From the NCBI GenBank assembly GCA_964360785.1, contig CAYHXX010000001.1, forward strand, positions 260,187-324,186: DNA of 64,000 nt, written 5' to 3'. This DNA is from an uncultured Gammaproteobacteria bacterium. Lineage in GTDB: Bacteria; Patescibacteriota; Microgenomatia; Woykebacterales; RBG-16-39-9b. The notes beneath the pieces were generated by a model that saw only the letters and a program-made list of their open reading frames with translations, searched no databases and was not told where the DNA came from. Made by a program: the position numbers and the translations under genes. Shown here piece by piece: positions 8,269 to 33,320 of the stretch (the stretch's first letter is position 1; the number at the start of each line of letters is the position of its first letter).

Positions 8269-9156
8269 TTAGTTCGATAATTTTATTGAAGCGATAATTG
8301 TTTCTGCTGTTTTTACTTCCGATAGGTTAAAGTACTCTGTTGGACTTAGTTTTTGGTAGGGGGAATCATCGGGATAACGTCCATGAAAACGCGCGCCCTT
8401 ATAAACATCAAAGAAAACTCCGCTCAATTCACCGAATACCGTATCTTCGTATAACAGACATCCTTCCCCGTTGTCCCCCAGCTTAGGATAGTCATTAATA
8501 TGGTTCAGCTGAATTTCCTTTCTCTGAAAATTTACACCTCTGCTCCTCAAAGACCCTCCCGAAACAGACCATTCCACAACGCTAATTTTATTACCACTTT
8601 CGGTTGTAAGTCCGATTGGTTTTATGCCATATACATTTACCTTGAATACATAGTCATTATTAGTACTATCCACGTTTTCCCCACAACCGCCACCCAAATC
8701 ACCGATTTCTTCGTTATCAACAAAATTTAAGAAAAAGCCATTTGGGCTTTTGACCACTACATAACCCAAACTTGATGGTGTTTTGGCTACATTATTTATG
8801 GTCCAATTGGTTGGATACTTAAAACTCATTCCATTTGAAGCACTGTAAGTTTTCCAATTCGAAGGGATCACAAAAGAGCTTGCCTGCTTGGCAGAAGAAC
8901 TAGCTGTTTTTTCGAGTTCTTTCTTGGCTTGTTCTAGTTTTTCAGCTGGTTTTATTGCCACAATTAAAATCACAAAAAGTATTGGCAGGATAAAAAACAA
9001 TGCTCCACAGCCGATCATTAGTTTTAGAAACAACGGCATACCTTTCTTCGGAACTGTAGTTGGAACTGGCGGTTGGGTAGTTCCAGGAATGGCTGGGACC
9101 CAAACAGCTTGTTCAGTTGTTTGAGGATTTACTGGTGCTGCATTTTGAGTATCCAT
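8269..9156 (-). CDS. Hypothetical N-terminally anchored surface protein. It has a proline-rich N-terminus and a single TM helix, and is an ectodomain paralog of the TFKFL family.
   Basis: 295 aa. The N-terminal 70 aa are nearly identical to the adjacent 9169..9723 gene (EQAVWVPAxPGxTQPPVPTxxPKKGMPLFLKLMIGCG). The ectodomain begins with the motif NWKTYSASNGMSFKYPTNW, which is shared with the other family members. Confidence 0.5.
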   Translation of the reverse strand: MDTQNAAPVNPQTTEQAVWVPAIPGTTQPPVPTTVPKKGMPLFLKLMIGCGALFFILPILFVILIVAIKPAEKLEQAKKELEKTASSSAKQASSFVIPSNWKTYSASNGMSFKYPTNWTINNVAKTPSSLGYVVVKSPNGFFLNFVDNEEIGDLGGGCGENVDSTNNDYVFKVNVYGIKPIGLTTESGNKISVVEWSVSGGSLRSRGVNFQRKEIQLNHINDYPKLGDNGEGCLLYEDTVFGELSGVFFDVYKGARFHGRYPDDSPYQKLSPTEYFNLSEVKTAETIIASIKLSN

Positions 9157-9168
9157 ATATTTTCTTGA

Positions 9169-9723
9169 CTACTGGCAAGTTGTTTTGCCTTCGCCAACCG
9201 CACTAACCACTCCTACCGTTGAGTCCCAACTGATTATCTTACCGCTTTGATCAGTATAGATACAGATTTTAGTATTTGCAGAATCAGCTAAGTATGTTGT
9301 TTCGACTAAAGCTACTGAACTCTGATATTTACTACTTAGCAGGTAGTTCTTATCCCCACAACCATTTGTGGTAGAAAATATCTGTTTGGCTGGGGTACCT
9401 TTTGCTTTTTCTGCTGTTACACAGTTATTAACTGATTCTGCAACTGAACGCAATGCTGCCTGAGAGGACCTTTCTTTAGCTTCATTGATTTTTGCAGCAG
9501 GGTTGATTGCAACAATAACTATCATGATCAAAATAAAAGGCACCCCAAAAGCAGCTATACAACCGCAGCCAATCATGAGTTTCAGAAATAGGGGCATACC
9601 TTTTTTTGGCATGGCTGTTGGAACTGGCGGTTGAGTCGATCCAGGAGTGGCTGGAACCCAAACTGCTTGCTCTACTGGTTGTTGTGGCTGTACAGGAACT
9701 GGATTTGTGTTCTGCTCGTCCAT
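9169..9723 (-). CDS. Hypothetical membrane-anchored protein; tandem paralog of 8269..9156
   Basis: 184 aa. It has the same N-terminal Pro-rich segment and TM helix as the downstream gene, followed by a different C-terminal domain. Confidence 0.5.
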   Translation of the reverse strand: MDEQNTNPVPVQPQQPVEQAVWVPATPGSTQPPVPTAMPKKGMPLFLKLMIGCGCIAAFGVPFILIMIVIVAINPAAKINEAKERSSQAALRSVAESVNNCVTAEKAKGTPAKQIFSTTNGCGDKNYLLSSKYQSSVALVETTYLADSANTKICIYTDQSGKIISWDSTVGVVSAVGEGKTTCQ

Positions 9724-9750
9724 AAATTCTTAATTTATACGTCTGCTTAT

Positions 9751-10065
9751 TTATTTGGCACTAGTTGTAGAGGACTTTGTTACTGCTTTGGTTGCTAGCT
9801 TTACCGCTGCATCGGAAGCTGATTTTCTTGTCGTTGTTATTTCACTCTCCAAGGTATTGACTCTACCTTCGAGTCTTTGTAAAGCAATCCACATCAAACC
9901 CAAGATTAACATTGTTGCGGTTAAAATCATGCCTACGGCGGCGAATACTTTGGTTGGGTCAAATTGGGTACGATCGTCACTCTTGGCAAGTAGCACTGGT
10001 TTTAGTTTATCCACATCAGGATCTTGGATCAGTGGAGGAGGACTTTGGACAGCTTGTTCGGGCAT
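9751..10065 (-). CDS. Small membrane protein; an N-terminal-module-only member of the MPE(Q/E)...KVFAAVG family
   Basis: 104 aa beginning MPEQAVQ, followed by a KVFAAVGMILT TM helix and a Ser/Thr/Lys-rich tail ending ...TTSAK. It has no ectodomain. Confidence 0.4.
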   Translation of the reverse strand: MPEQAVQSPPPLIQDPDVDKLKPVLLAKSDDRTQFDPTKVFAAVGMILTATMLILGLMWIALQRLEGRVNTLESEITTTRKSASDAAVKLATKAVTKSSTTSAK

Positions 10066-10115
10066 AGGTAAATTATAGAAGAAAATTTAGGTTCTAGTCA
10101 AATATCAATTACTCA

Positions 10116-11648
10116 TTACTTACAGATCTTTAGCTTTGTTCCGTCAGGAAGCAAAAAAGTTTTTGTTTCTACCCTCTCACTTGGACAGTTTATCTCCTCA
10201 CCATTTCTGATCAGTAATAAATCTGCTTCTTGCGAGTTTGAAACAAACCTAAGCTGCCCCTTTTGGGCGTAAAAAGACAGCGCGGACTTGTTAAACCAAA
10301 TAGTATCCAAACCCTCAAAAGCAAAGCTAGAGTTGGGCGTTTTTTTAATATACTCAATAGCCTCTACCAAATACCAGTTTTCTCTTGTCGGAGGACCAAT
10401 CAAATAACCGTTTTGTGCAAACAAAACAAGTTTATTTTTCTCATTCAAATCTACTATTACATTCTTTGGTAAGAATGACAATCCAAAAGAAACGGCTAAA
10501 AAAGTTAAAATAGAGTAGCCAATTAAGAGAATCGAAAGTACCAGTCTTTGTTTTTCTTTCAGGAAATTTAACCAAAAAGTACTCACAACAGCAACTGCTG
10601 AAAGTATTGGTAAAGTATAACGCGCATCCTTGTTTCGAAGGAAAGTGAAGATTAAAACTGCTCCAAAGATAAACGTGAGTAGATAAAGATTCTTTCTCAA
10701 ATTTATAGCATCGCGTTTATAATAAAGGAAAAACAGGCCTGTTAAGAAAAACAAAACCGGTACAAGATAAAGTTGAGAGTTAATTAAATTGAAGAAATAA
10801 TACAAATTTGACTCTAGACTTCCGACTAATGGATCGCCTTCCTTAATACCAGATTGCAGACTTGCAACAACATCAATTCTCAGGTTCCGCAAATTACTCA
10901 AATACCAAAAACCGCTAACCAAATAGGCAACTAGTCCTGAAAAAATAGCATTGCGAACCCTAAATAGCTCCCTCTTCTTATTAATAACTGATCTAAGAGT
11001 TAAAAATAATGCCGTAAAAAGCGGTAGGATCATAAACAGTAAAAAAGTCCATTTTGTCAGTAGTCCAAGTCCAAAAACAATTCCAAAAACTATGGATCTC
11101 TTCTCCGAAGAAAATTCTCGGGTTTTAATCAATAAAACTAGTGCAAGAGCAACCATCGCTGACAGTGGTGCATCTATCTGAAACTCTTTAAATTGAGAAA
11201 CGAACATTGGTGTAGCCAGAAGGAAAACGGTCGCTAACAAACCAACACTTTTACTCCAAAATTCTTTACCTAGTTCGTAAGTAGAGTAGCTTAGTATTAA
11301 AAGAAAAGTAAAATTACTCAAAATCGCAGTTGGAATTGAAAAGCCAAACAAGGAAAGGTAAATTGACGCATTCCAATAAACTAGCGGCGGATAAAAACGG
11401 TAAGTAAATATATATTCAAAAAGCTGACTCAGATTAAAACGGTTGAAGTAAGTCAGACTATTTGAAAGATGAGTTGCCATGTCCCAATGCGGAGGTCGAG
11501 TTTCGCTGTGAATCCAAATCTGGTTTGAGAAAACAATTGCAGTAACAATCAAGAAGATTAGAGAATAGTTTCTCCAATCGGTAAATAGAAGGTTAAACTT
11601 GGAAAAGATTTGAAATTGCTGATTTGTTGAAGTTCTTGCTTTCTTCAC
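10116..11648 (-). CDS. GT-C fold membrane glycosyltransferase (ArnT/PMT_2-like, polyprenyl-phosphate-sugar dependent)
   Basis: 510 aa with about 12 predicted TM helices and an N-terminal loop carrying SETR..HWD acidic residues like the ArnT/PMT family. A C-terminal soluble domain is present. Confidence 0.5.
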   Translation of the reverse strand: MKKARTSTNQQFQIFSKFNLLFTDWRNYSLIFLIVTAIVFSNQIWIHSETRPPHWDMATHLSNSLTYFNRFNLSQLFEYIFTYRFYPPLVYWNASIYLSLFGFSIPTAILSNFTFLLILSYSTYELGKEFWSKSVGLLATVFLLATPMFVSQFKEFQIDAPLSAMVALALVLLIKTREFSSEKRSIVFGIVFGLGLLTKWTFLLFMILPLFTALFLTLRSVINKKRELFRVRNAIFSGLVAYLVSGFWYLSNLRNLRIDVVASLQSGIKEGDPLVGSLESNLYYFFNLINSQLYLVPVLFFLTGLFFLYYKRDAINLRKNLYLLTFIFGAVLIFTFLRNKDARYTLPILSAVAVVSTFWLNFLKEKQRLVLSILLIGYSILTFLAVSFGLSFLPKNVIVDLNEKNKLVLFAQNGYLIGPPTRENWYLVEAIEYIKKTPNSSFAFEGLDTIWFNKSALSFYAQKGQLRFVSNSQEADLLLIRNGEEINCPSERVETKTFLLPDGTKLKICK

Positions 11649-11654
11649 TTTTGG

Positions 11655-12725
11655 TTAGCGTTGACGCATAAAGGCTGGCACGTCATACTCATCTTCCGCT
11701 TCTTCCGAAGCTGGTTCAATTATCTCGGGGAGCGAAGCGGCCGCATCTCGAGCTTCGGTCGAGCGAAGTTTTTCTTCAGAAAACCCAGTGGCAATCACCG
11801 TGATCTTTACTTGATCCATCATCGACTCATCAATTGCAGCTCCAAAAATTATGTTGGCATCAGCATCGGCTGCTGCAGATATAATTTTGGCAGCCTCATC
11901 CACCTCATACATAGAGATATCTGGTCCGCCAGTAACATTGAACAAGACCCCTTTAGCGCCCTCAATAGAAAGTTCCAAAAGCGGTGAGGAGATTGCCGAA
12001 CGGGCGGCAGAGGCAGCACGGCCTTCACCTGTACCAAAACCAATACCCATCAAGGCGCTTCCAGCGTTGGTCATAATACTGCGAACATCGGCAAAATCAA
12101 CATTGATCAATCCTGGCAAAACTATAATATCGGAAATTCCCTGAACACCTTGTCCCAAAACACTGTCAGCAACCTTAAAAGCTTCGAGCAAACTCATTTT
12201 TTTATCAACAACATCCAAAAGTCTTTGGTTGGGAATTACAATCATGGTGTCGACTTTGTCTTTAAGACCATCGACACCCTCTTCGGCAACTACCCGACGA
12301 TGGGCACCTTCAAAAGAGAACGGTTTGGTGACGACTGCAACTGTGAGAGCCCCACTCTTGCGGGCAATATCAGCAATTACTGGACAACCACCAGTTCCAG
12401 TACCACCGCCCATACCACCAGTGACAAAGACCATATCGGCATCGGCTACTACTGCTTGGAGTTTTTCAAGAGATTCCTCGGCTGCTTTGCGACCAATTTC
12501 TGGATCACCACCACTCCCTAAACCACGTGTAAGTTGATCACCGATTTGTACTTTTGTTGGAGCCTGGCACGTCAAAAGCGCCTGGGCATCAGAATTGACA
12601 CCAATAAAATCAACGCCTTGTATTTGTTGCAAGTTGATCATAGAGTTGAGAGCGTTACAACCAGCCCCACCAACTCCGACAACTTTTATCTTTGCAAATC
12701 TGTTTACTTCAGGTTTGATAAGCAT
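11655..12725 (-). CDS. ftsZ: Cell division GTPase FtsZ
   Basis: Carries the GGGTGTG tubulin signature and the N-terminal GVGGAGCNA motif. 356 aa. Confidence 0.95.
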   Translation of the reverse strand: MLIKPEVNRFAKIKVVGVGGAGCNALNSMINLQQIQGVDFIGVNSDAQALLTCQAPTKVQIGDQLTRGLGSGGDPEIGRKAAEESLEKLQAVVADADMVFVTGGMGGGTGTGGCPVIADIARKSGALTVAVVTKPFSFEGAHRRVVAEEGVDGLKDKVDTMIVIPNQRLLDVVDKKMSLLEAFKVADSVLGQGVQGISDIIVLPGLINVDFADVRSIMTNAGSALMGIGFGTGEGRAASAARSAISSPLLELSIEGAKGVLFNVTGGPDISMYEVDEAAKIISAAADADANIIFGAAIDESMMDQVKITVIATGFSEEKLRSTEARDAAASLPEIIEPASEEAEDEYDVPAFMRQR

Positions 12726-12755
12726 ACGAAAACGTTCCTAATTTCTAGTGCACCG

Positions 12756-12784
12756 AGAATACACCAAGTATACAAAAGTGTCAA
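12756..12784 (-). promoter_or_regulatory. Candidate ftsZ-proximal promoter TTGACA-17-TATTCT on the minus strand
   Basis: In the ftsA-ftsZ intergenic region the minus strand reads TTGACAc-ttttgtatacttggtg-TATTCT, about 30 nt upstream of the ftsZ ATG. Confidence 0.25.
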
Positions 12785-12806
12785 ATTTTTTACGCTATAA
12801 TTTTTC

Positions 12807-14093: not shown

Positions 14094-14138
14094 GTTGTTT
14101 AACCTTTGGGTCGCTAGGCAGTTAAGGTTCTAAAGAAC

Positions 14139-14615
14139 CTAGTATTCGACCACGATTTTTTCAAAGCGAAAATCAACCTTTTTTATGGCTTTATTATCTA
14201 TTTTAGCTTTAGTTAAAAGAGTTTGTAAAGTACTGACCTGATCAGTCAAGCTTTTTTTGCTAGCAAAGATTATTGTCGGACCCTTTTTCGCTTTGACCAA
14301 TATATCCCCCTCAGTGGTATTTGTCAGAGATTCAATCTCAAAAACCTTGTCGTTATCAATAAGTTGTTTTAGTTCCTCTTCTTTTGAACTTGCTTTTATC
14401 TTTACCTCTTTTCTGACTTCGGGTTTGATACGAGTAAGGACTTCGGAAAATATTTTTTCATAAGAAAAGTTTGAGGATAAAAGTATCCATACTACGGTAC
14501 CGAGCAAAACTGAAATTATCAGCAAGATACTTACCCAGCGAAGTATCTGATCACGCCAGGCATGTTTTTTCTTGACAGTAAAAACTGGGACGGAAGTTTT
14601 GTTTGCGGTTGCCAT
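14139..14615 (-). CDS. Short FtsQ/DivIB-like cell division protein (single TM plus periplasmic domain)
   Basis: 158 aa with an N-terminal TM helix, located between murG and ftsA, the canonical ftsQ slot. It is shorter than typical FtsQ. Confidence 0.45.
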   Translation of the reverse strand: MATANKTSVPVFTVKKKHAWRDQILRWVSILLIISVLLGTVVWILLSSNFSYEKIFSEVLTRIKPEVRKEVKIKASSKEEELKQLIDNDKVFEIESLTNTTEGDILVKAKKGPTIIFASKKSLTDQVSTLQTLLTKAKIDNKAIKKVDFRFEKIVVEY

Positions 14616-14620
14616 GGAAG

Positions 14621-15721: not shown

Positions 15722-15750
15722 ACAATAATAGATTATACTACAGGAAAATT

Positions 15751-16911
15751 TTAATTTTGCTTGGTTTCGTTCGCAGTGTGTTTAGAAAGTTGGAGAAGTA
15801 CTGCAACTGCTAGAAATATTGAGATTAAGGAACTACCACCATAAGATATAAAGGGAAGTGGTACACCCGTCAAAGGTAGCATTGCTAGCATACCAGAAAG
15901 GTTAATAAAAACCTGTAAACCAATCCAAATACCAATCCCAGAAGCTAGCAACTGTCCGAATCTATCCGGCAGATGAGAAGCAATTTTAAAGGCGCGGAAG
16001 ACTACCAAAAACAGTAGACAAATAAATATCAGAGAACCAAAAAAACCCAGTTCATTACCAATAACGGCAAAGATTGAGTCTGTCGTGATCTCAGGGATAT
16101 ACCCATACTTTTGTCGTGATTGTCCTAACCCTACTCCAAACCAACCACCAGACCCCAACGCGATCAAGATTTGGTTAATATGATAGGCAGCTCCTTGGGG
16201 ATCAGAACCTGGATTTAAAAAAGTTAAGAATCTTTCTCTGCGATAACCAGATGAAAAAATAAACCCCAGGATTGAAAGTAAACCTGCAGGTATCAGGAGA
16301 AAAAAGTGTGCTAACGGGGCGCCAGAGAGGAAGTACACCAATAAACCAGTCAGACTAATGATGATTGCTGTTCCCAGATCACGCTGGAGTATCAAGACCC
16401 CAAGTAAGAATCCAGTCAAAATGACAAATGGCCAGAATTTCACTTTTTTTGATAAGAATGCAGACAAATATATAATGTACCCAAGTTTCGCAAATTCTGA
16501 TGGCTGTATGGAAAAAAGCTGCCCCACCCCAATCCAACGTTGCGCTCCGTAGATATTAAGACCAATACCAGGCACAAATACTGCTATCAGCAATACAATC
16601 GATCCCAACATTATTACCGGTGCTAACTTCTCCCAAATCTTATAAGGGAACAAATAAACCAAAAAAGCAACAGCCGCGCCTCCAACTGCCCAGATAATTT
16701 GCAGCCTTGCAAGTCGTGTCGGATCACCAAAATCTCTTTCTGAAGTAACTGGTGAGGCATTGTAAATCATCAGCAATCCAAACAACACCAAAAAAACTGT
16801 TGCGGTTAACAGTAAGAAATCTGGTCGGTGTGCTTGCGTTTTTTGGGTATGCTGAATATGTTTTGCTTCCATGTCTAATGAAATTAAAGTATAACTCAAT
16901 TCTGAAAACAT
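15751..16911 (-). CDS. ftsW: SEDS-family lipid II flippase/polymerase FtsW
   Basis: 386 aa polytopic protein carrying the SEDS motif and placed in the ftsW position between murD and murG. Confidence 0.8.
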   Translation of the reverse strand: MFSELSYTLISLDMEAKHIQHTQKTQAHRPDFLLLTATVFLVLFGLLMIYNASPVTSERDFGDPTRLARLQIIWAVGGAAVAFLVYLFPYKIWEKLAPVIMLGSIVLLIAVFVPGIGLNIYGAQRWIGVGQLFSIQPSEFAKLGYIIYLSAFLSKKVKFWPFVILTGFLLGVLILQRDLGTAIIISLTGLLVYFLSGAPLAHFFLLIPAGLLSILGFIFSSGYRRERFLTFLNPGSDPQGAAYHINQILIALGSGGWFGVGLGQSRQKYGYIPEITTDSIFAVIGNELGFFGSLIFICLLFLVVFRAFKIASHLPDRFGQLLASGIGIWIGLQVFINLSGMLAMLPLTGVPLPFISYGGSSLISIFLAVAVLLQLSKHTANETKQN

Positions 16912-16957
16912 TAGTTGGGAGGTAAAAGAAAGATAATTGACTTTGATCTAGTTTTCT

Positions 16958-17443
16958 TTGATAATGATTTTAATGCCTTCAGAAGACGCTGCCAATAAAG
17001 ATTCCAACCTCAAGATCATTGCATTTGTTGCTATTTTTCTCATTATTGCTCTAGTTGCAGTGCTTTTTTACTATCAAAGTTTCCAAAACGGAAACAAAAC
17101 AACAAGCAAAACCACCACTTCCAATACCAATGATTGGGTCACTTACACTAGCAAAACCCACGGATACTCGATCAGCTACCCAAAGTCCTGGCAAAAAGTG
17201 GTAGCGGCAACTTCAACTGACTCCAGTGGTCCAGAAATAATTTTGCTCAACTTGACCGACAATGAAGGTCGGGACAACGGCAAGCCAAATATCATCATCA
17301 CCGCAGGAGCCCCGGCGGATGTCTGTAGCGAAATTAAAGATCAAACTTGCAGGGAGCTAGGAAACAATGTTTTTGCCTCAATTCAGGCAAATGGCGATCA
17401 AGCCATCATTGACCAGGTTCTCAATACTTTTAAAACTAATTAA
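16958..17443 (+). CDS. Hypothetical anchored or secreted protein; a member of the TFK(F/T) ectodomain family
   Basis: 161 aa. The likely start is the internal MPSEDA at about 16973. A TM helix is followed by a Thr-rich linker (TTSKTTTSNTN), the ectodomain motif DWVTYTSKTHGYSISYPKSW and the C-terminus NTFKTN. Confidence 0.45.
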   Translation: MIMILMPSEDAANKDSNLKIIAFVAIFLIIALVAVLFYYQSFQNGNKTTSKTTTSNTNDWVTYTSKTHGYSISYPKSWQKVVAATSTDSSGPEIILLNLTDNEGRDNGKPNIIITAGAPADVCSEIKDQTCRELGNNVFASIQANGDQAIIDQVLNTFKTN

Positions 17444-17451
17444 ATAAACTT

Positions 17452-17679
17452 ATGCCAGAACAAAATGTCCAAGTAACCCCAAGTGCACCAAAATTCAACA
17501 CCCACAAGGTGTTTGCTGCCATTGGGATCATTTTAACAGTAGCAATTATTGCAGTAGCTGCTATTTGGTATTTTACCGATAGTAGCAGCAGCTCTGATGA
17601 TGAAAGTGGTACTACAGTGAAGGTTTCAACAAGTTCAGCCAAACCTGCAACTAAGTCTGCGACTAGTGCTGCGAAATAA
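17452..17679 (+). CDS. Small membrane protein; an N-terminal-module-only family member
   Basis: 75 aa beginning MPEQNVQ, with an HKVFAAIGIILT TM helix and an S-rich tail ending SAAK. It ends where the ectodomain would begin. Confidence 0.4.
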   Translation: MPEQNVQVTPSAPKFNTHKVFAAIGIILTVAIIAVAAIWYFTDSSSSSDDESGTTVKVSTSSAKPATKSATSAAK

Positions 17680-17684
17680 ACAAA

Positions 17685-18446
17685 ATGCTCGAGCAACCTG
17701 TCCCAAACCCACTAGCCAAAAACCCAAACATCCACACACATAAAGTCTTTGCCGCAGTTGGATTAATTCTCATTGGAGTAATCCTTGCCGTAGCTGGAAT
17801 TTGGTGGTATGTGAACAACCAATCGGAAACGACAACCTTAGAGACTGCAGATACTTCAACCAAAGTCTCAACCTCTTCAGCCAAGAAAACTGCAGAATCA
17901 GTTGAAAAAACAGTGGAGGATGAAATTGCTGAGTGGAAAACTTTTACTAATTCTAGTTTTAAATATTCTCTCAAGTATCCCGAGGGTATAAATCCTTTCT
18001 CAAATTCGCCTATGGGCGGGGATACTGCTGATGTTTCAGGAGATGTGATATTTACCAATGACCCAAAGGTTACAACTGAGACACGAGGCGTGGAGGGAAC
18101 GATTGGGAAAGATTTCTATCTGCTACAGATTTACCTGATAGATAAGAACGGAAATTCTTACTACACGGGTAAGACTTTAGCAGAAATCGCTCAAGGAGAT
18201 TACAACAAAAATAAAACTAGCGCGCAGAGTATCACAGAACTAACCCAAACCACAGTTGGGGGTAAAAGTGCGTATTCTTTTCAAAAGACCAAGGCCACTG
18301 CTTTTGATTATCTTGCCGGTGGTTGGTTGCTGACCCAAGAAACCATAAAGATACTTGAAGTCGAGAATAACGGATCGATATATTACCTGATTTATCGTCC
18401 AAACGACACAATTGAAGAAATCCTTACGACCTTCAAATTCCTCTAG
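17685..18446 (+). CDS. Hypothetical N-terminally anchored surface protein of the TFKFL family
   Basis: 253 aa with the N-terminus MLEQPVPNPLAKNPNIHTHKVFAAVGLILIG, the linker TTTLETADTSTKVSTSSAKK, an ectodomain starting EWKTFTNSSFKYSLKYPEG, and the C-terminus ILTTFKFL. Confidence 0.5.
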   Translation: MLEQPVPNPLAKNPNIHTHKVFAAVGLILIGVILAVAGIWWYVNNQSETTTLETADTSTKVSTSSAKKTAESVEKTVEDEIAEWKTFTNSSFKYSLKYPEGINPFSNSPMGGDTADVSGDVIFTNDPKVTTETRGVEGTIGKDFYLLQIYLIDKNGNSYYTGKTLAEIAQGDYNKNKTSAQSITELTQTTVGGKSAYSFQKTKATAFDYLAGGWLLTQETIKILEVENNGSIYYLIYRPNDTIEEILTTFKFL

Positions 18447-19813
18447 AGTTTCTTAACTTCTTCTTTAAATAATTGTCCGCGGTTCTTATAGTTTTTGAAC
18501 ATTCCAAAACTGGCACATGCTGGACTTAACAACACTACATCACCTTCTTTGGCAACCTCTTTTACTTGGGAAATTATTTCCGCCATATCCTTAGCTCCCA
18601 CTTTAACCACACCCTTAAAATCTCCAGCTTTTTGAATCGCTTCTTTGATTTTTGGCCCCATTTGGCCGATCAAGATAATTGCTTTGATATTTTTTGCAGC
18701 GGCAATTTCTTTTCCAAGTTCAGTGTAATCCGAACCTTTGTCACTACCACCGAGAATTAAAATTTCCAGTTGGGTGAAACTTTTCAAAGCAGCGATTGCT
18801 GTTTCTGGAGTCGTCGAGAAAGAATCGTTGTAGTATTTCACACCGTTTACTTCACCGACAAACTCAAGTCGGTGCTCGAGTCCTTTAAATTGCCGGACAC
18901 TTTCAGATATTGGAGTAACACCAATCCCAAACGGAGTCACGGCTGCGACCGCTGCAACAATATTTTCTAGATTATGACTGCCGATCAAGCCAACTTCGGA
19001 GCTGGCTATTACCCTTTCAGCCGCCGCCCCGACTCGTCGATAAATTTGGCCGTTGGCGACAAAAACCCCATTGGAGAGCTCCTCTTTGATACTAACTTGT
19101 AGTTTCCTTCCCTCTCCAATATTTAAAAATTCTTGCGTGAGCGGATGATCGATATTTACAATCGTAAAATCCTGTGGGTTTTGGAACTTGGCAATGTTGT
19201 ATTTGGCTTCTTTGTACTCGATGACATCTTTGTGCCAATCAAGATGTTCACTCACCACCATCAGTACAACAGCAACATGTGGGCTTTTCTCAAGATCGAT
19301 AAGCTGGAAACTTGATAGCTCAAGTACGACAATATCTGTTGAGGAGAGTTGTGGTAACAAATCAAGCGCCGGCGTTCCAATATTCCCTCCCAGAAAGGCT
19401 TTCTTTCCCGCTCTCTTTAAAATTTCCGTAATTAAACTTGCAGTGGTACCTTTTCCTTTGGTTCCGGTTACCCCGATTATCGGTGCTGGGCACAGGTCAA
19501 AGAATATTTTGGTATTGCTGGTGATGAGCTTTCCTTCTTTTTTGAAATTCTGAAGTTCAGCTAGATCCGGACGGATTCCCGGAGTTCTGACAAGAACCTC
19601 AAATTTGGAAAGGTTTGTGAGGCATTCTGGGCCTAAAGTCATCTCAATTGAGAGTTGCCTAAACTTTTCTACAATTTCCGGATCCAGCTGACTAACAGTC
19701 TTCTGGTCGAGAACTGTTACATAGGCTCCCTGCTTTTTCAGAAAGGCTGTACTGGAGAGTCCTTCTACTCCTGCCCCCAGAACACCAACAAGTTTTTCTT
19801 TGAAATTTAGCAT
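18443..19813 (-). CDS. murD: UDP-N-acetylmuramoylalanine--D-glutamate ligase
   Basis: 456 aa Mur ligase fold with an N-terminal Rossmann-type GAGVEG motif and a GTKGKGTT P-loop. Confidence 0.85.
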   Translation of the reverse strand: MLNFKEKLVGVLGAGVEGLSSTAFLKKQGAYVTVLDQKTVSQLDPEIVEKFRQLSIEMTLGPECLTNLSKFEVLVRTPGIRPDLAELQNFKKEGKLITSNTKIFFDLCPAPIIGVTGTKGKGTTASLITEILKRAGKKAFLGGNIGTPALDLLPQLSSTDIVVLELSSFQLIDLEKSPHVAVVLMVVSEHLDWHKDVIEYKEAKYNIAKFQNPQDFTIVNIDHPLTQEFLNIGEGRKLQVSIKEELSNGVFVANGQIYRRVGAAAERVIASSEVGLIGSHNLENIVAAVAAVTPFGIGVTPISESVRQFKGLEHRLEFVGEVNGVKYYNDSFSTTPETAIAALKSFTQLEILILGGSDKGSDYTELGKEIAAAKNIKAIILIGQMGPKIKEAIQKAGDFKGVVKVGAKDMAEIISQVKEVAKEGDVVLLSPACASFGMFKNYKNRGQLFKEEVKKL

Positions 19814-20853
19814 TATCGGTTGATAAGGGCAATGAAAATACCAAAAAAAGCAAACACTGCTCCTGCGAGCCAGAACCGCATCGTGACTTTGGTTTCATCC
19901 CAACCTTTAGCTTCAAAATGATGGTGGATCGGCGAGGCCAGAAATACTTTCTTGCCGCTTCTCGTGGCTTTTGACGCCCACTGGATTAGGACTGAAACAG
20001 TTTCTAAGGTAAAGACAAAACCTATCAGTGGTAGCAGTAGTACAGAATTGGATACCAGGGCAATAACCGCTAGCATCGCTCCCAATGCAAGCGCCCCAGT
20101 ATCACCAAGCCAAACACGAGCGGGGTAAATATTGAAGTACATAAAAGCAAGAAGAGAACCAACAATCACTGCGATAAACAAAGATACATCAACAAAGCCA
20201 GTAGTCGAAACCAGAAACCAAAACGCAACCAATGCAATTATCATGAGTCCTGTAACCAGTCCGTCAAGACCATCAGTGATATTGACTGCATTTGAAGTAC
20301 CAACAATCACTAGTGCAGCAAACGGAACATACCAAAGACCAAGTTCGAAATTCTTCGCAATTATCGGTAAATAAACTGAGGACAAATTCATCTTGTCATA
20401 GAGAAGAAAGGCAATACCAAAACCAAGCAGCCACTGAAGTATAAATTTATAACGGATCCGCAAACCCCATGCGCCCTTCATCGAAAAACCGTAAAATTTA
20501 CGAACATCGTCATAAAGCCCAAGTAATCCAAACGAAATCAAGGTCAAGTACAAAATCGCTGCCACCCAATTCACCCCGTACATTTTTGTCACGATGTCAT
20601 ATCCAGGAACTAGCTTGTAGAAAATCGCAGAAAGTAAGATTGTAACGAGAATAACTAAAATTCCTCCTGCATTTGGTGTTCCGACCTTCCAACCATGAAG
20701 TCTATTTACAATGGAGGTAACTGCTCCGAAGATATCGTGCTGATTTTCGCGTTGGCGTTGGAACTTGAGTTTGTAAAGTAGATTGATAAAAGGAACTGCA
20801 GAAATGAAGGTGACACCGAAAGTAAAAAGTAAGATCGCTAAAAGATCAACCAT
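19813..20853 (-). CDS. mraY: Phospho-N-acetylmuramoyl-pentapeptide transferase
   Basis: 346 aa polytopic protein with conserved NAVNxTDGLDGL and HHHFE motifs. Confidence 0.9.
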   Translation of the reverse strand: MVDLLAILLFTFGVTFISAVPFINLLYKLKFQRQRENQHDIFGAVTSIVNRLHGWKVGTPNAGGILVILVTILLSAIFYKLVPGYDIVTKMYGVNWVAAILYLTLISFGLLGLYDDVRKFYGFSMKGAWGLRIRYKFILQWLLGFGIAFLLYDKMNLSSVYLPIIAKNFELGLWYVPFAALVIVGTSNAVNITDGLDGLVTGLMIIALVAFWFLVSTTGFVDVSLFIAVIVGSLLAFMYFNIYPARVWLGDTGALALGAMLAVIALVSNSVLLLPLIGFVFTLETVSVLIQWASKATRSGKKVFLASPIHHHFEAKGWDETKVTMRFWLAGAVFAFFGIFIALINR

Positions 20854-20880
20854 GGTCAGATAATTCTACCAAATTTAAAG

Positions 20881-22083
20881 CTAGCGGTAAACTTCGTAAC
20901 GTTTGAAGGCTACTTCATCAGGGTCAACTTGTTTGCCTTCCATTATCAGTGGAATACGTTCCAGATGTTTTAGCAACGAGCCTTTGAGATAAATCAAATC
21001 ACCAGATTTGACCAAACTAGAAAGCACTCCAGCTGCTTCGAAAACATCATTTACCCAAATTACTGTCCCCCTTTTCATATTTTTCTCAGCTTCCGTAACG
21101 ATATATTTGGTCACCGGCCCAACTGCAATAAGATAATTAGGTTTTACGAGTCCAACTTCTGCACCAACCTGACGATGACCCTTCTCCTCCCATTCGCCCA
21201 GCTCCCCCATTTCCCCAATAACTGCAATCTTTCTTTTGGCGGGATATTCGTCAAGAGCCTGTAATCCAGCAATTGCAGAGGCTGGGTTGGCTCGACGAGA
21301 ATCATTGAGTATTACCGTACCTTTTGGACCCTGTTCAATACTCATGCGACCCTCCATGGGCTTCAAAGACTCTAGTCCTCGTGCGATCAACGAAATATCC
21401 ATGTTAGATAGTATCCCAACAGCTGCCGCCGCCAGACAATTTTCAACAAAGGCAGTTCCAATCAGACTCGTACGGGCTTTGATCATCTGATCTTTATAAT
21501 GAAGATTGAACTCCAGGCCAGTAGCAGTGAGTTTGATTCTATTTGCCCAAACCGAAACTCGGTTTTTGTCAAAGCCGTAGAAAAATACTTTTCCTTTACA
21601 ATCATCGCCCATTCTTCGAACTTCTGGAATTTCATAGTTCAGAACAGCAAACCCATCTTTCGGTACTGCCTTCACTAGTTTTGCTTTTTCTTTGATAATA
21701 TTCTCGAGTGACCCAAGATGTGCCTTGTCTGCATGGACTGGGGAAATACCGGTAACAACCGCAATTTTTGGCTTCGCCAAAGACAAATGTCTATTCATCT
21801 CACCAACACGATCGACTCCATATTCCAAAATTAATTTTTCTTGGTTCGTTAGCTTTAGTATTGTGATCGGAATGTTAAAAGTTGTATCAAGATTTATATC
21901 AGTAGTTAAGGCTTTGAATTTTTGCGATAGCACTGCTTCAATCGCCGCAACCGTATTGGTTTTACCATAACTGCCAGTCACACCAATCACAGTAGCTTTG
22001 CCGTGACTCTGCAACCAAAGTTTTGCCAATAATCGTCGGGAAGTGTGAAAAAAAGGACGCGCAATATTTTTAATTCTACTCAT
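20881..22083 (-). CDS. murF: UDP-N-acetylmuramoyl-tripeptide--D-alanyl-D-alanine ligase
   Basis: 400 aa Mur ligase with a GVTGSYGKT P-loop, located upstream of mraY as in canonical dcw. Confidence 0.8.
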   Translation of the reverse strand: MSRIKNIARPFFHTSRRLLAKLWLQSHGKATVIGVTGSYGKTNTVAAIEAVLSQKFKALTTDINLDTTFNIPITILKLTNQEKLILEYGVDRVGEMNRHLSLAKPKIAVVTGISPVHADKAHLGSLENIIKEKAKLVKAVPKDGFAVLNYEIPEVRRMGDDCKGKVFFYGFDKNRVSVWANRIKLTATGLEFNLHYKDQMIKARTSLIGTAFVENCLAAAAVGILSNMDISLIARGLESLKPMEGRMSIEQGPKGTVILNDSRRANPASAIAGLQALDEYPAKRKIAVIGEMGELGEWEEKGHRQVGAEVGLVKPNYLIAVGPVTKYIVTEAEKNMKRGTVIWVNDVFEAAGVLSSLVKSGDLIYLKGSLLKHLERIPLIMEGKQVDPDEVAFKRYEVYR

Positions 22084-22108
22084 GCGCGAATATTATACAC
22101 AAAAAAGT

Positions 22109-23227
22109 TCATTTGTAGAACCTGGTCACCCGACTTGCGAGGTTGACAACCACTTCATATGGGGAAGTTTGCAGTTTATCCGCAACACCTTCAACTGTGA
22201 TTTCTTCATTACCACTTTTTCCAATCAAAATCACTTCTTCACCGGCTCGAATATCTTCCGGGATATCTGTAATATCAATTGCTGCTTGGTCCATCGATAC
22301 TCGACCCGCCAGTGGTGCTCTGTGACCTTTGATCAAAACTTCACCCCAGTTATAGGGTGCCCGACGAAAACCGTCACCATAACCAACCGCCAGTGTGGCA
22401 ATACGAGAAGGATGACTAACTTTAAAGGCCCGACCGTAACCAACCGTTTCCCCAACTTGAAGTTCATGGGTTTGGACAACCTCAGTTTTGAAAGTTAGTA
22501 CTCTTTTCATTTCCGGTGAAAAAACTGATTTTGAATCCCGATTCAAACCTAGCATTGCAAGGCCCGGCCTTACCATATTGAAATGACCTTCCGGTAAATT
22601 GAAAATTCCGGCTGAGGCGGCGGCACTTTTGACTGGAATATTTATTCCTTCTTTTTCTAATTCGGCGAGAACTTTATTAAATCTTTCCAACTGAACTTTG
22701 GAAAATTCAATGTCACCATCAGCATCTGCAAAATGGGTAAAAATCCCTTCAATCTGTAAATTTGGTAGATCCTGAAGTTTTTTGACAAAGTAGAGTACTT
22801 GGTCTGGTTCCAGACCAAGCCGGTGCATACCAGTGTCGACTTTAACCCAAACCTTGGCAATTTTTTCTCTCCGTCTGGCTGCGGTAACCAGAGCTTTGGC
22901 AACGTCGAGATTTTTAACCGTGGCGGTAACATCGAAGTTAATCATGTCCTCGTAATTTTCCGCCGGGGTATAGCCCAAAATTAGAATTGGAGTTTTTATT
23001 CCGCTGCTACGCAACTCTCGCGCCTCGTAAAAAGAAGAGACGCCGAAGTAGTCAACCTTTGCCTCCTGAGCAATCTTCGCAACTCCCAACGCCCCATGAC
23101 CATAAGCATTGGCCTTGACCACAGCCATAATTTTCACACCATCACCAACGTGTTTTTTGATTACAGAAAGATTGTTTTTGATTGCGGAGGAACCAATTTC
23201 AACCCAAGCAAGACGTGGGATAGACAT
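22109..23227 (-). CDS. alr: Alanine racemase
   Basis: 372 aa with the PLP-binding motif AVVKANAYGHG. Confidence 0.88.
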   Translation of the reverse strand: MSIPRLAWVEIGSSAIKNNLSVIKKHVGDGVKIMAVVKANAYGHGALGVAKIAQEAKVDYFGVSSFYEARELRSSGIKTPILILGYTPAENYEDMINFDVTATVKNLDVAKALVTAARRREKIAKVWVKVDTGMHRLGLEPDQVLYFVKKLQDLPNLQIEGIFTHFADADGDIEFSKVQLERFNKVLAELEKEGINIPVKSAAASAGIFNLPEGHFNMVRPGLAMLGLNRDSKSVFSPEMKRVLTFKTEVVQTHELQVGETVGYGRAFKVSHPSRIATLAVGYGDGFRRAPYNWGEVLIKGHRAPLAGRVSMDQAAIDITDIPEDIRAGEEVILIGKSGNEEITVEGVADKLQTSPYEVVVNLASRVTRFYK

Positions 23228-23249
23228 TTTTCAATTATACCAGAGGAAT

Positions 23250-24050
23250 TTAGAGGAATTTGAAGGTTGTTACAATGGTGTCTAAAACTGAAGTGTCCAA
23301 ATCTTGCTGATTACCTGGAAAGGACTGTATAAGGTAAAAAACCCTTTTGTCCTTAACAGCTAGTATCTCATACTTATTTGTATTCCACTCCCCCTTCCAA
23401 GTTGATCGCATAGCGTTTTGGTGATCTAGCAGAATATAGTCTAGTACTGAAACACCCTCTTTACTAATCCTCCTATCTTCAGCAACTTCATCGAAGGTGT
23501 CATAGGATTCTAGGCTGGCGGTATCATAAGTTATACTCACATCCGTTCCGCTGAGGTAGTAATCTCCAGACACATTTGGCTCTTGGTTAAATTTATAGTC
23601 ACCACTTAATAACCTTATACCGTTTTTATACTCATTTCCAACTGTGAAGTCAGGTGGATAGCTAAAACTAAAATACATTGTTTTGTATTCTTTCCAATTT
23701 GATGAATCCAATTTTTCTGACGAAACATTTCCCTTTTTACCAAAAATTTCTGAGGTTTTATAGTTCTTGGAATTTGCTGAGGAAGTTGAGACTTTGGTTG
23801 TGGTAATTTCATCTTCGGGTATTTTGCTTCCAGACTGGTTCTCGACGTACCACCAAATACCAGCTGTTGCAACGATTGCACCGATCAGAATCAGTCCAAC
23901 TGAAGCAAAAACTTTATGTGTATATACGTTTGGATTTTTGGCTAGTGGGTTTGGTACAGGTTTATCAAGTAGAGATGGAGAGTTTGATGGTGGAATTGCA
24001 ATCGGTGTACTTGCAGATTCTTCAGGCATTAAGATAATTATAACTCGCAA
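23250..24050 (-). CDS. Hypothetical N-terminally anchored surface protein of the TFKFL family
   Basis: The likely start is the internal MPEESAST at about 24029. It has PVPNPLAKNPNVYTHKVFASVGLILIG, the linker TTTKVSTSSANS, the ectodomain motif NWKEYKTMYFSFSYPPDF and the C-terminus IVTTFKFL. Confidence 0.5.
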   Translation of the reverse strand: MRVIIILMPEESASTPIAIPPSNSPSLLDKPVPNPLAKNPNVYTHKVFASVGLILIGAIVATAGIWWYVENQSGSKIPEDEITTTKVSTSSANSKNYKTSEIFGKKGNVSSEKLDSSNWKEYKTMYFSFSYPPDFTVGNEYKNGIRLLSGDYKFNQEPNVSGDYYLSGTDVSITYDTASLESYDTFDEVAEDRRISKEGVSVLDYILLDHQNAMRSTWKGEWNTNKYEILAVKDKRVFYLIQSFPGNQQDLDTSVLDTIVTTFKFL

Positions 24051-24130
24051 GAACTACCGAAGCAAGATATAACCAGAAAGGTTATCGATTATTGTTAATA
24101 ATTGTCAATTCAAACCTGAGTGTCAGACAC

Positions 24131-24505
24131 TTAGGCGTGTTTTTCGATCCAAGAAGCGATTTTTTCGATAGTTGGTTTTGAATTCTCAACCCACAAAGCA
24201 AAATCAACGATATCCCTGTTTGTCGCGGTGAATTTTCTTTTATTTAAGATGAGAAATTCAATCATGGAAATAGTTGCTGTTCTTTTGTTACCGTCAACAA
24301 ACATGTGATTAAGCAGCAACGAGTGAACTAAAGCAGCTGCTTTTATCTCAAGGGTTGGATAAAGATCTTTACCAACAAAAGTTTGCTGAGGCCGCATTAC
24401 CGCCGACTCCAAAAGACCAAGATCACGTAAACCTTGAGATCCTCCGGTTACTTCAACTATCTCGTAGTGAATCTGGATGACGTTCTCTGGAGTTAAATAT
24501 TTCAT
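24131..24505 (-). CDS. doc: Doc (death-on-curing) Fic-fold toxin
   Basis: 124 aa with the Doc variant Fic motif HMFVDGNKRTA. It overlaps the upstream antitoxin gene by 4 nt. Confidence 0.8.
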   Translation of the reverse strand: MKYLTPENVIQIHYEIVEVTGGSQGLRDLGLLESAVMRPQQTFVGKDLYPTLEIKAAALVHSLLLNHMFVDGNKRTATISMIEFLILNKRKFTATNRDIVDFALWVENSKPTIEKIASWIEKHA

Positions 24506-24705
24506 TTCGAAGCAAGCTCTTCGAGGGCGCCGCGGTACTCTTTGATCAAGTTTTGTGTCAAGTCGTGAATTTTTGGATCGGCGTTGAAAATAGGTTCAAT
24601 TGTGAATGACAAGGAATCACCAACTTTAAGGTTTTTTGCTTTGATTTCTGATTTTGGGATTGTTACGGCAAGCGAGTTGCCGACTTTGATAACTTTTTGA
24701 ATCAT
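24502..24705 (-). CDS. AbrB/MazE-fold (SpoVT_AbrB) antitoxin partner of Doc
   Basis: 67 aa containing KVGNSLAVTIPK, a swapped-hairpin AbrB/MazE signature. It is translationally coupled to doc. Confidence 0.7.
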   Translation of the reverse strand: MIQKVIKVGNSLAVTIPKSEIKAKNLKVGDSLSFTIEPIFNADPKIHDLTQNLIKEYRGALEELASK

Positions 24706-24714
24706 GTTAGTACA

Positions 24715-24743
24715 ATGTTAGAACAAAAAGAGCGAGTTGTCAA
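24715..24743 (-). promoter_or_regulatory. Candidate promoter for the antitoxin-doc operon (TTGACA-17-TAACAT, minus strand), with GTTAG direct repeats
   Basis: The minus strand reads TTGACAactcgctctttttgttcTAACAT, followed by tgtactaac and the ATG. TGTTAG is repeated twice next to the start, which may be an operator. Confidence 0.25.
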
Positions 24744-24762
24744 ACTCTGAAATGAGAAAGTT

Positions 24763-25431
24763 TTAAAGGAATTTGAAGGTGGAAAGGATTTGATCTAGCT
24801 CTTTGGAATAATTGGTTCCAGAAGTACTTCCATCATACTCAATAAGGAAAGCATCACTTGATATCTTAATAATATAGCTCACTTTATTTTCGTTATCCTT
24901 AGTAAACTTAAGAGCGGTTTTACCATCGATAACTTTAGTACCAGATTTTGTAAAGTTTTTTTCAAGTATTACGATCTCAGAATCATAATTGCTGTTTAAT
25001 GTTGCTAAACGGAAACCAATGTGGTCATCAATGCCACAAGCTGATTTATCAGGTTTGGTTGGAAAGAACCAAACATTATCTTGCTCACAGACAGTAAAAC
25101 CCCAACTCTTAGGTAGCTTTACGGTAAAATTTTCAGTAAAATCTATACTTTGATCACTTGTAGAATATGTTCTCCAATCAGAAGGTATTTCTGAAGAAGT
25201 TCCTGGTTTTACCGGATTATCAATATTCGAACTTTTGGGAACTCCTTTTAGGAAATCTCCAAGTGGACCGCGATAAATAAAGGCCAATATCCCTCCAACA
25301 ATTATTAACGCGACTATTGCACAGAGAACTACAACTCCAGAAAGAGATTTTGGTTTGGACACATCTTGCGGAGTAGGCGTAGTATTTGTTTGTGGGTTTT
25401 CGACTGGAGCACTTGCAGGTTCTTCAGGCAT
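24763..25431 (-). CDS. Hypothetical N-terminally anchored surface protein of the TFKFL family
   Basis: 222 aa beginning MPEEPASAP, with a TM helix, the ectodomain motif DWRTYSTSDQSIDFTENFTVKLPKSW and the C-terminus ILSTFKFL. Confidence 0.5.
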   Translation of the reverse strand: MPEEPASAPVENPQTNTTPTPQDVSKPKSLSGVVVLCAIVALIIVGGILAFIYRGPLGDFLKGVPKSSNIDNPVKPGTSSEIPSDWRTYSTSDQSIDFTENFTVKLPKSWGFTVCEQDNVWFFPTKPDKSACGIDDHIGFRLATLNSNYDSEIVILEKNFTKSGTKVIDGKTALKFTKDNENKVSYIIKISSDAFLIEYDGSTSGTNYSKELDQILSTFKFL

Positions 25432-25507
25432 TTTCTTAATTATCTAGCAGTTGATATAAATTGTCAATTTAACCTGTAAACTATGGCTGAGGGTCAGGCC
25501 CTTGAAC

Positions 25508-32981: not shown

Positions 32982-33320
32982 TCACTGTCCCAAAGCAACG
33001 CTCGAACCTAGTCTGACAACTTCTACTTTACCTTGTTTGACCATACCAATCTCTGAAGCTTTACCTTCAATATAACCCAAGGAGGATTTTTGTGAGAGTT
33101 GGTTTTCCAAACTTGCATTTTCTTCTTTCAAATCTTCTATCTTTCTTTCTGAAAGTGAGACTCTTTCTCCAGAAATCGCCAACTGATTTGAGAAGTAAAT
33201 TCTCGCAGTCAACAATCCAATTGTTACGAGTAATAATGCTGTTACTAGTTTGGGGTAAACAAAGAAACTTTGGGTACGCGAAGCTACATTTTGAATTGTT
33301 TGTCGTTTTATTAATTTCAT
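32982..33320 (-). CDS. ftsL: FtsL-like cell division protein (bitopic, coiled coil)
   Basis: 112 aa with a single TM helix followed by a leucine-zipper-like coiled coil (IEDLKEENASLENQLSQ). It lies between rsmH and ftsI. Confidence 0.5.
   Translation of the reverse strand: MKLIKRQTIQNVASRTQSFFVYPKLVTALLLVTIGLLTARIYFSNQLAISGERVSLSERKIEDLKEENASLENQLSQKSSLGYIEGKASEIGMVKQGKVEVVRLGSSVALGQ

Follow-up and report, generated by a model that had tools for sequence, protein, structure and literature searches.

Eight genes, A to H, that are interleaved with the division and cell wall (dcw) cluster in a 64-kb stretch of groundwater DNA (hereafter the window) encode envelope proteins of a Patescibacterium, each with a single membrane pass and all restricted to its lineage. 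They are mosaics of exchangeable modules: an anchor, composed of a cytoplasmic peptide and a transmembrane (TM) helix, a short stalk, and an outer part. The outer part is a PsbP_2 ectodomain in A, D, F, G and H, a different domain in B, and absent from C and E. The genes sit in fixed dcw slots behind strong, near-consensus putative promoters of a leaderless type, the anchors are conserved, and the outer domains are swapped or replaced fast. We favor the reading, with a probability of about 0.6, that these proteins display variable, non-enzymatic binding modules in the wall zone, mounted on a conserved anchor.

Eight anchored proteins in the dcw cluster

The DNA derives from a 0.1-μm-filtered Hainich groundwater metagenome, and the closest species-representative contigs carry the labels Patescibacteria, Saccharimonadales and Woykebacteria. 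The eight genes are as follows.

A, 8269..9156, minus strand: 295 aa; type-2 anchor, TM helix at nt 8953-9021, KTASSSAK stalk, PsbP_2 ectodomain at nt 8272-8856
B, 9169..9723, minus strand: 184 aa; the type-2 anchor of A with a different, four-Cys ectodomain
C, 9751..10065, minus strand: 104 aa; PPPLIQDP cytoplasmic motif, TM helix at nt 9880-9948, LQxLExRV, Ser/Thr/Ala/Lys tail
D, 16973..17443, plus strand: 156 aa; short anchor of its own, TTSKTTTSNTN linker, short PsbP_2 ectodomain at nt 17135-17440, ending NTFKTN
E, 17452..17679, plus strand: 75 aa; degenerate type-1 anchor, KVSTSSAK, tail ATKSATSAAK
F, 17685..18446, plus strand: 253 aa; type-1 anchor, TM helix at nt 17745-17813, TKVSTSSAK, PsbP_2 ectodomain at nt 17934-18443, ending TTFKFL
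G, 23250..24029, minus strand: 259 aa; type-1 anchor with an MPEE N-terminal extension, TM helix at nt 23844-23912, PsbP_2 ectodomain at nt 23253-23696
H, 24763..25431, minus strand: 222 aa; type-3 anchor, TM helix at nt 25273-25347 followed by YRGPLGDFLKGVP, PsbP_2-type ectodomain at nt 24766-25176

All open reading frames (ORFs) listed in the initial annotation are present where it had placed them, and the listed starts hold except at two genes: D begins at ATG 16973 (MPSED) rather than TTG 16958, and G at ATG 24029 rather than TTG 24050. From ATG 24029, G begins MPEE and is identical to the database protein P0001. The motifs it had quoted (PVPNPLAKNPNxxTHKVFAxVGLILIG, TKVSTSSAK, W-K-T-Y...Y-P and TFKFL) were all recovered, and every protein has a single hydrophobic helix, as it had described. 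G carries a TTTKVSTSSAN stalk and ends TTFKFL; H has a short linker, ends LSTFKFL, and has only two homologues besides itself among 5.8 billion proteins. The ectodomain of A contains Cys-bearing insertions and ends IIASIKLSN, not TFKFL.

Pairwise similarity within the family is real but uneven. BLASTP links F to G (E = 4e-31), A to B (7e-29, anchor only), E to F (2e-14) and C to G (1e-8), as well as G to H over their full length (6e-7), A to H (2e-6), and E to G. Without anchor and linker, single-sequence searches miss most ectodomain pairs, and when single sequences were clustered by their cores, trimmed of the start and end motifs, the family fell into about 30 clusters, so that a profile was needed. 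A hidden Markov model (HMM) was therefore built from 79 ectodomains of other genomes, with the window proteins excluded, and searched against the 636 six-frame window ORFs of at least 40 aa. Matches were confined to H (2.4e-15) and F (6.7e-15), each from end to end, and to G (1.3e-13), D (2.5e-9) and A (5.6e-9); none of the other ORFs came up at E values up to 10, which indicates that the shared motifs reflect homology and not composition. The family HMM revealed no further ectodomain member elsewhere in the window. B was not retrieved; its earlier inclusion as a family member was an artefact of a clustering that had kept the linker.

The family is restricted to its lineage, as the initial annotation had proposed: the anchor profile retrieves only 116 cluster representatives among 1.84 billion proteins. 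Metagenome and genome scans contributed only 5 loci each, and no relative was found in 2.9 million viral contigs. Matches to NCBIfam SAG1386/EF1546, RodZ and SpoIIQ are sub-threshold and confined to the TM helix and linker. Matches to PADLOC PD-T4-6 and to PHROG spanin and Sie families are weak as well (E 4e-5 to 7e-3) and do not extend beyond the TM helix and Ser/Thr region, and membership of an anti-phage defence or phage family was not found in PADLOC or PHROGs.

A probable PsbP_2 ectodomain

The ectodomain probably belongs to the named family PsbP_2 (Pfam PF18933) and has the Mog1p/PsbP fold. The initial annotation had recognised no named family here and counted membership of a well-characterised one against its own view; PsbP_2 is named, yet has no established function. 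Against a gathering cut-off of 27 bits for the whole-protein HMM score, A scores 34.8 bits (N-terminal part only), D 28.3 and G 25.0, the last aligning to profile positions 34-184 of 184. F and H do not match the Pfam PsbP_2 model. Among 109 homologues, 58 match it at E ≤ 0.01. The ectodomain aligns from the W-x-T-Y...Y-P at its start as far as the S-F-K-F at its end, and the PsbP_2-aligned stretch is bounded by the W-K-T-Y...Y-P opening on one side and by T-F-K-F-L on the other. Searched against PDB sequences, the family profile (A5) finds CyanoP at E = 2e-4. Across the homologue set the ectodomain cores share a mean pairwise identity of 14%.

The AlphaFold model of G (mean predicted local distance difference test (pLDDT) score 71.7, block means of 74-95 over most of the ectodomain) contains a TM helix at residues 36-65, a disordered stalk at residues 67-101, and a C-terminal segment formed by a helix and a final short strand. 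Its ectodomain is an antiparallel β-sheet flanked by helices and superposes on PsbP, Mog1 and DcrB. Superposition gave values of 13.5 for BT_1490, 12.2 for CyanoP, 11.2 for 3LYD, 11.0 for TplEi, 10.8 for Tsi3, 10.6 for LpqN, 10.2 for Mog1 and 8.4 for DcrB, in agreement with Foldseek on the same model. The model of A is less confident (pLDDT 61), and its top Foldseek match is PsbP (7.5e-5).

Identity with the photosystem II protein PsbP proper (PF01789 / NF040946) was rejected. The best score, that of D, is 18.8 bits against a cut-off of 23.5 for PF01789, and 17.3 against 60 for NF040946, and the neighbouring genes are the dcw genes of a Patescibacterium. Two variant architectures were seen among the homologues. 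P0048 (314 aa) joins a type-1 anchor and PsbP_2 to a C-terminal FtsX extracellular domain (PF18075, E 3e-10), and P0050 and P0013 carry two PsbP-like ectodomain units in tandem; these proteins are encoded on contigs outside the window (L019).

Anchors and stalk are exchanged between outer domains

In every member an uncleaved-looking TM helix of 22-25 residues follows a cytoplasmic segment of 12-48 residues. At least three anchor variants were distinguished. The type-1 anchor, PVPNPLAKNPNxxTHKVFAxVGLILIG, is nearly invariant across homologues; it is present in F and G and degenerate in C and E. Type 2 (QAVWVPA..PKKGMPLFLK) is found in A and B, and type 3, recognised by (Y/F)RGxxGDFLKGVP after the helix, in H; D has an anchor of its own. 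The short stalk, whose nearly invariant motif K-x-S-T-S-S-A-K is common to all anchor types, is predicted to be disordered in the AlphaFold models of G and A. The anchors are covered by no NCBIfam or Pfam model. The positive-inside rule favors a cytoplasmic N terminus for A, B, E, F and G.

The modules occur in different combinations. A and B are 61% identical over their 80 N-terminal residues, with a direct DNA repeat of 79% identity (9005-9123 / 9563-9681), and then diverge into unrelated outer parts, that of B having no Pfam, NCBIfam or PDB match. The homologue P0037, which matches A at 62% identity over 85% of its length, is mounted on a type-1 anchor. Type-1 anchors in the same genome also carry non-PsbP outer domains (P0033, which has no PDB sequence match, and a 240-aa neighbour), and the type-3 post-TM motif recurs with other cytoplasmic motifs. 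By eye, the post-helix segment of B (INPAAKINEAKERSSQAALRSVAESV) recalls the α1-C of type IV pilins, a likeness that no tool confirmed. A B-like copy, 86% identical in DNA, lies in the related contig L011 (about 1868-2332).

Other sorting routes were considered for the N terminus and set aside. A lipobox of the DcrB/LpqN lipoprotein type might be read into I-G-C-G at the start of the type-2 helix, yet on inspection about 18-20 hydrophobic residues follow it. Among lipobox, prepilin, YSIRK, KxYKxGKxW and Tat signals, no G|F(T/S)LIE, RR or YSIRK motif was seen by eye. Signal peptidase cleavage at SSA|K is disfavored, as the distance between motif and helix varies (13-25 residues) and the short forms carry repeats of the motif.

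Anchor-only mini-proteins

C and E, which the initial annotation had taken for truncated copies, represent two conserved classes of anchor-only mini-proteins with conserved C termini and syntenic orthologues. About 20-25 of the 116 anchor-profile representatives are 71-118 aa long and fall into these classes. E-like proteins (71-85 aa) end ...ATKSATxSAx, with about 10 representatives of this conserved tail, and C-like proteins (94-109 aa) have an invariant cytoplasmic PPPLIQ.P and LQxLExRV after the helix. An alignment of 15 C-like sequences contains invariant L, Q, P, K, A, A, G, I and L columns. E has an orthologue of 77 aa, 61% identical, at the same position in L005. A C-like gene lies directly downstream of ftsZ in five other contigs: L008 (4302-4652), L009 (2694-3005), L011 (3807-4145), L014 (7670-7993) and a JGI contig. 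The nonsynonymous divergence (dN) of the mini-proteins, 0.32-0.37 (E 0.32), is near that of their FtsQ-like neighbour and far below the saturated synonymous divergence (dS).

The mini-proteins match no known family. The C-like design, a TM helix followed by LQxLExRV, is similar to that of DivIC, FtsB and FtsL, yet none of the 15 C-like sequences matches them at E ≤ 1 and, where those have a long coiled coil, the tail is rich in Ser and Thr; a match to CrgA is unconvincing (best E 0.006, 3 of 15 sequences). We regard the ftsZ-adjacent C-like protein as a candidate lineage-specific division protein.

Conserved slots and rapid turnover of ectodomains

The family genes of the window lie in three slots, which are occupied by family genes in eight related contigs.

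Slot 1, between murA and alr: one to four genes in relatives; H and G in the window, split by phd/doc
Slot 2, between murD and ftsW, on the opposite strand: one to three genes in relatives; D, E and F in the window
Slot 3, between ftsZ and pyrG: a C-like gene first; C, B and A in the window

Interleaving with the dcw genes, with one group on the opposite strand, had been described correctly in the initial annotation, which counted four points of insertion where there are three conserved slots. H, D and C are the lead genes of slots 1, 2 and 3, respectively. A fourth slot is seen in a more distant relative, with four tandem members between ftsI and murE, and family arrays or anchor fusions also occur outside dcw clusters (L012, L015 and L019).

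The position of these genes is conserved, as are anchor and stalk, to about the degree of the adjacent core genes; the ectodomain sequence is not. Compared with the syntenic contig L005, core proteins are 58-87% identical, whereas identity is 61% for E, 42% for D (against a 183-aa orthologue), 34% for G and 18% for H; dN rises from 0.11 in Alr and 0.14 in MurG to 0.65 in G. In blastn comparisons with nine relatives, only the anchor DNA of the family genes aligns (120-200 nt, 73-83%, with core genes at 65-75%), and ectodomain DNA cannot be aligned between genomes, with one exception. The ectodomain cassette of F is 88.5% identical over 529 nt to positions 2408-2936 of L011, although core genes there are 68-75% identical. 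The L011 copy occupies slot 3, is carried by a different anchor and has the opposite relative orientation; the match breaks off at the stalk/ectodomain junction on one side and at the stop codon on the other. Judged by these alignments, the match is a lateral exchange at the level of the cassette. The N-terminal anchoring described in the initial annotation holds, and the outer domain evolves fast, as would be expected of an exposed protein. Its proposal of repeated duplication into the locus is too simple: duplication occurs, but the slots are common to eight related contigs, and loss, module shuffling and cassette exchange occur as well.

The anchor-coding DNA also forms an inverted repeat around part of the cluster.

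Left arm, 17688..17884: 5′ anchor-coding part of F; 197 nt, 75% complementary
Right arm, 23773..23969: anchor-coding part of G

These arms bracket alr-murF-mraY-murD, and this block is inverted in L004 (10001-16337, compared with window positions 17685-24029). There, murA and murD are linked by one family gene, P0005, and the other junction is marked by a frameshifted anchor-gene remnant (about 16039-16231, minus strand). The inversion fits recombination between the inverted anchor repeats of F and G.

Lead genes have putative leaderless-type promoters

Promoter-like sites precede the three lead genes and G.

H, 25439..25467, minus strand: TTGACA-17-GATAAT-7-ATG
D, 16937-16965, plus strand: TTGACT-17-GATAAT-7-ATG
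C, 10072-10101, minus strand: TTGACT-18-TATAAT-6-ATG
G, about 24037-24065, minus strand: TTGCTT-17-TATAAT-7-ATG, with a weak −35 box and a perfect TATAAT

The −10 box ends 6-7 nt before the ATG at each of these putative promoters, and over the slots as a whole this distance is 6-8 nt, a layout expected of leaderless mRNA. On the two strands of the window combined, the strict motif has three occurrences where 0.1 is expected, one each at D, H and C. In relatives, 14 of 14 slot-lead genes have this layout ahead of the ATG, and non-lead members begin 0-12 nt after the preceding stop codon. The MPE N terminus noted earlier would be explained because ATGCCNGAA is the start of most putative leaderless lead transcripts. 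A −10 box alone, at similar spacing, precedes alr (23227), murF (22083), the FtsQ-like gene (14615) and a few others, so this organism may commonly use leaderless starts. A 59-nt direct repeat (75%; 23983-24041 / 25385-25443) covers the −10 box, start codon and first codons of G and H, so that the 5′ ends of lead genes are conserved at the DNA level.

A variable display module or a housekeeping adaptor

In the reading we favor, the proteins would insert as signal anchors with the N terminus inside and the C terminus outside, and the stalk would place a non-enzymatic domain of the PsbP fold in the wall zone or on the surface of the cell, and there the domain may bind a partner. Binding is suggested by the structural neighbours: those with a stated function are non-catalytic binders, among them PsbP, LpqN, Tsi3, TplEi, the SciW/EagT6 chaperones, Apa and Mog1. 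LpqN is a described binder (PMC7458404), and DcrB is a membrane lipoprotein acting in membrane homeostasis (PMC9487459). Because the ectodomains turn over fast, the partner is most likely external and changing, such as the surface of a host or neighbour, a phage, or foreign envelope-attacking enzymes. Conservation of anchor and stalk points instead to a shared internal partner, and these modules probably dock to a common membrane or cytoplasmic component, for which the neighbouring wall-synthesis and division machinery is the obvious candidate. C and E would dock in the same way but display no domain. Extended further, anchor plus stalk would be a previously unrecognised N-terminal tethering or sorting signal of this lineage that docks outer domains and anchor-only proteins, the ftsZ-adjacent one included, to the division and wall machinery, with dcw as a display platform whose leaderless-promoter slots let strains swap hypervariable cassettes; we consider this extension speculative and unlikely.

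Several points weigh against variable display. Surface exposure is deduced from hydropathy and from the usual location of the fold, and the positive-inside rule is ambiguous for C, D and H. dS is saturated, so dN/dS is unusable as a measure of selection. The homologue set was gathered partly via the anchor, which biases the apparent anchor conservation and leaves synteny as the unbiased support; L011 comes from a co-assembly, and the case for exchange of the F cassette may reflect chimerism. Placement in dcw and the FtsX fusion of P0048 fit a housekeeping envelope role at least equally well. The main rival casts the proteins as housekeeping envelope-biogenesis adaptors of the peptidoglycan-synthesis and division machinery, as LpqN is for MmpL3/MmpL11. 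It accounts for the slots kept in eight contigs and the additional ftsI|murE slot, for the PsbP_2-FtsX fusion in one homologue, and for the C-like mini-protein that always follows ftsZ. An adaptor should track a conserved partner, however, and the ectodomain cores, at their low mean identity, and the syntenic "orthologues", at 18-42% against 58-87% for their neighbours, do not. Copy number per slot that ranges from 1 to 4, lateral cassette exchange, and arrays and anchor fusions outside dcw also argue against it, and we judge this rival rather unlikely, if still the one to be taken most seriously.

Tandem arrays of divergent paralogues, rapid turnover, lateral exchange, and repeated linkage to a mobile doc/phd module would also suit immunity-type inhibitors of envelope-degrading enzymes, such as muramidases or lipases, that come from competitors, hosts or phages and act at sites of new wall, in the manner of Tsi3 and TplEi, with the arrays as a repertoire of specificities. 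Yet no effector gene adjoins the family genes in the window or the eight related loci, where the neighbours are dcw genes, pyrG and doc/phd. The proteins have no sequence similarity to immunity families in Pfam or NCBIfam, and PADLOC gave nothing meaningful. The fold is at least as similar to PsbP, BT_1490 and LpqN, and the anchor-only members are left unexplained, making an immunity role improbable. Programmed surface variation, in which shufflon- or pilS-like recombination between paralogue copies switches ectodomains or inverts the dcw block, would draw on the 197-nt inverted repeat around alr-murD, the inverted block of L004 with its decayed reciprocal product, and cassette breakpoints at module borders. 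The arms, however, are only 75% identical, too divergent for frequent homologous recombination, and no recombinase or invertase lies in or beside the slots. L001-L003, replicate assemblies from the same well, share one slot-1 arrangement from murA through murF/mraY, the murD-F junction not being reached, and differences are seen between genomes and none within one; we give this scenario very little credence. Finally, the initial annotation had itself raised the possibility that the motifs are compositional, and the family could likewise be dismissed as Ser/Thr-rich and hydrophobic artefacts with pseudogene debris as short ORFs. Core-only pairwise searches do break it into many small clusters, and weak matches to unrelated TM or Ser-rich profiles (PD-T4-6, SRTM1 and New_glue) betray some compositional signal. 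This explanation is already refuted by the specific, decoy-free search with an external profile, by two independent models of the same fold, by the PsbP_2 matches of more than half of the homologues, and by short forms with syntenic orthologues, conserved termini and a dN far below saturated dS.

Comparison with known systems

The domain family and its fold are known already. What we did not find in the literature is the conserved cassette of anchor and stalk, the relatives that consist of an anchor only (the ftsZ-adjacent protein among them), the conserved dcw slots with their leaderless-type promoters, and the exchange of cassettes. The PsbP_2 family definition includes none of this family's anchor, K-x-STSSAK stalk, anchor-only relatives, dcw slots or leaderless promoters, and we found no paper on PF18933/PsbP_2 function, nor on PsbP in connection with the candidate phyla radiation (CPR) or Patescibacteria. 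CyanoP, PsbP and PnsL1, lumenal subunits of photosystem II and NDH, are neither TM-anchored through this module nor hypervariable, and no photosynthesis-gene match turned up in the searches run. LpqN of M. tuberculosis and DcrB of E. coli and Salmonella are lipid-anchored PsbP-fold proteins, with no sequence-level match to the window family; both are conserved and are not known to lie within dcw clusters. Tsi3 and TplEi are immunity proteins of type VI secretion systems, whereas the locus here has no effector partner or secretion system, and the likeness is in fold only. The mycobacterial Pro/Ala-rich antigens Apa/MTC28 are secreted, unlike the anchored window proteins, whose glycosylation is putative.

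Two analogies are of design. Bitopic proteins of the MapZ/RodZ type combine a cytoplasmic N terminus and a single pass with a Ser/Thr-rich linker and an outer binding domain, and YSIRK-type leaders are conserved N-terminal leaders on otherwise variable surface proteins, linked to septal delivery. Neither MapZ, RodZ nor YSIRK proteins show a sequence or domain relationship to the family, the only match being RodZ at E 0.028, confined to the TM helix and linker.

The dcw cluster is among the most conserved bacterial gene arrangements, and to our knowledge little is known of the division mode and surface display of Patescibacteria. The locus yields testable candidates for lineage-specific divisome-associated proteins, chiefly the ftsZ-adjacent PPPLIQDP mini-protein, and a variable surface layer may mediate interactions with hosts, phages or competitors in an uncultivated symbiont group. 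It also provides a first genomic context for PsbP_2, a family for which we found no functional literature. A study of dcw evolution leaves out CPR genomes (PMC8871954).

Other features of the locus

The window contains a full dcw cluster on the minus strand, in the following order.

Block 1, minus strand: mraZ, mraW, DivIC-like gene, ftsI, murE, NTP-transferase gene, murC, murB, murA
Block 2, minus strand: alr, murF, mraY, murD
Block 3, minus strand: ftsW, murG, FtsQ-sized gene, ftsA, ftsZ, PMT_2 glycosyltransferase, pyrG

Further features lie among these genes.

32982-33320: DivIC-like gene, separate from C
24131..24705, minus strand: phd/doc-type toxin-antitoxin pair, splitting slot 1 between H and G
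10116..11648, minus strand: PMT_2 (GT-C, protein-mannosyltransferase-like) membrane glycosyltransferase, Pfam PF13231 1.7e-15
29011-29760, minus strand: NTP_transferase-family (sugar-nucleotidyltransferase-like) gene between murE and murC, in the same place in L004-L007

The toxin-antitoxin pair matches the NCBIfam models TIGR01550 DOC_P1 (1.2e-15) and doc_partner (2.3e-11). Its arrangement between H and G recurs in L011 (17292-17738) and L020 (1174-1620), where the Doc protein is 90-92% identical to that of the window. Window and L011 share 85.8% DNA identity over doc/phd, compared with 68-75% over core genes. In L019 (2843-3232), a doc-like gene stands at the head of an array of four family genes that lies outside dcw.

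The PMT_2 gene sits between ftsZ and C, a position empty of PMT_2 in L008, L009, L011 and L014. The enzyme could modify the Ser/Thr stalks; O-glycosylation is a guess, as the position of PMT_2 is not conserved in relatives. F and murD are convergent, and their stop codons overlap by 4 nt (18443-18446), as they do in L004 (10759-10762). Minus-strand transcription past murD would consequently run antisense through F-E-D before reaching ftsW, splitting dcw into separate units. L011 (CAYIWY010000003.1) is titled "uncultured Gammaproteobacteria bacterium"; yet its dcw proteins share 69-92% identity with those of the window and its family slots are the same, and the Gammaproteobacteria label is probably wrong.

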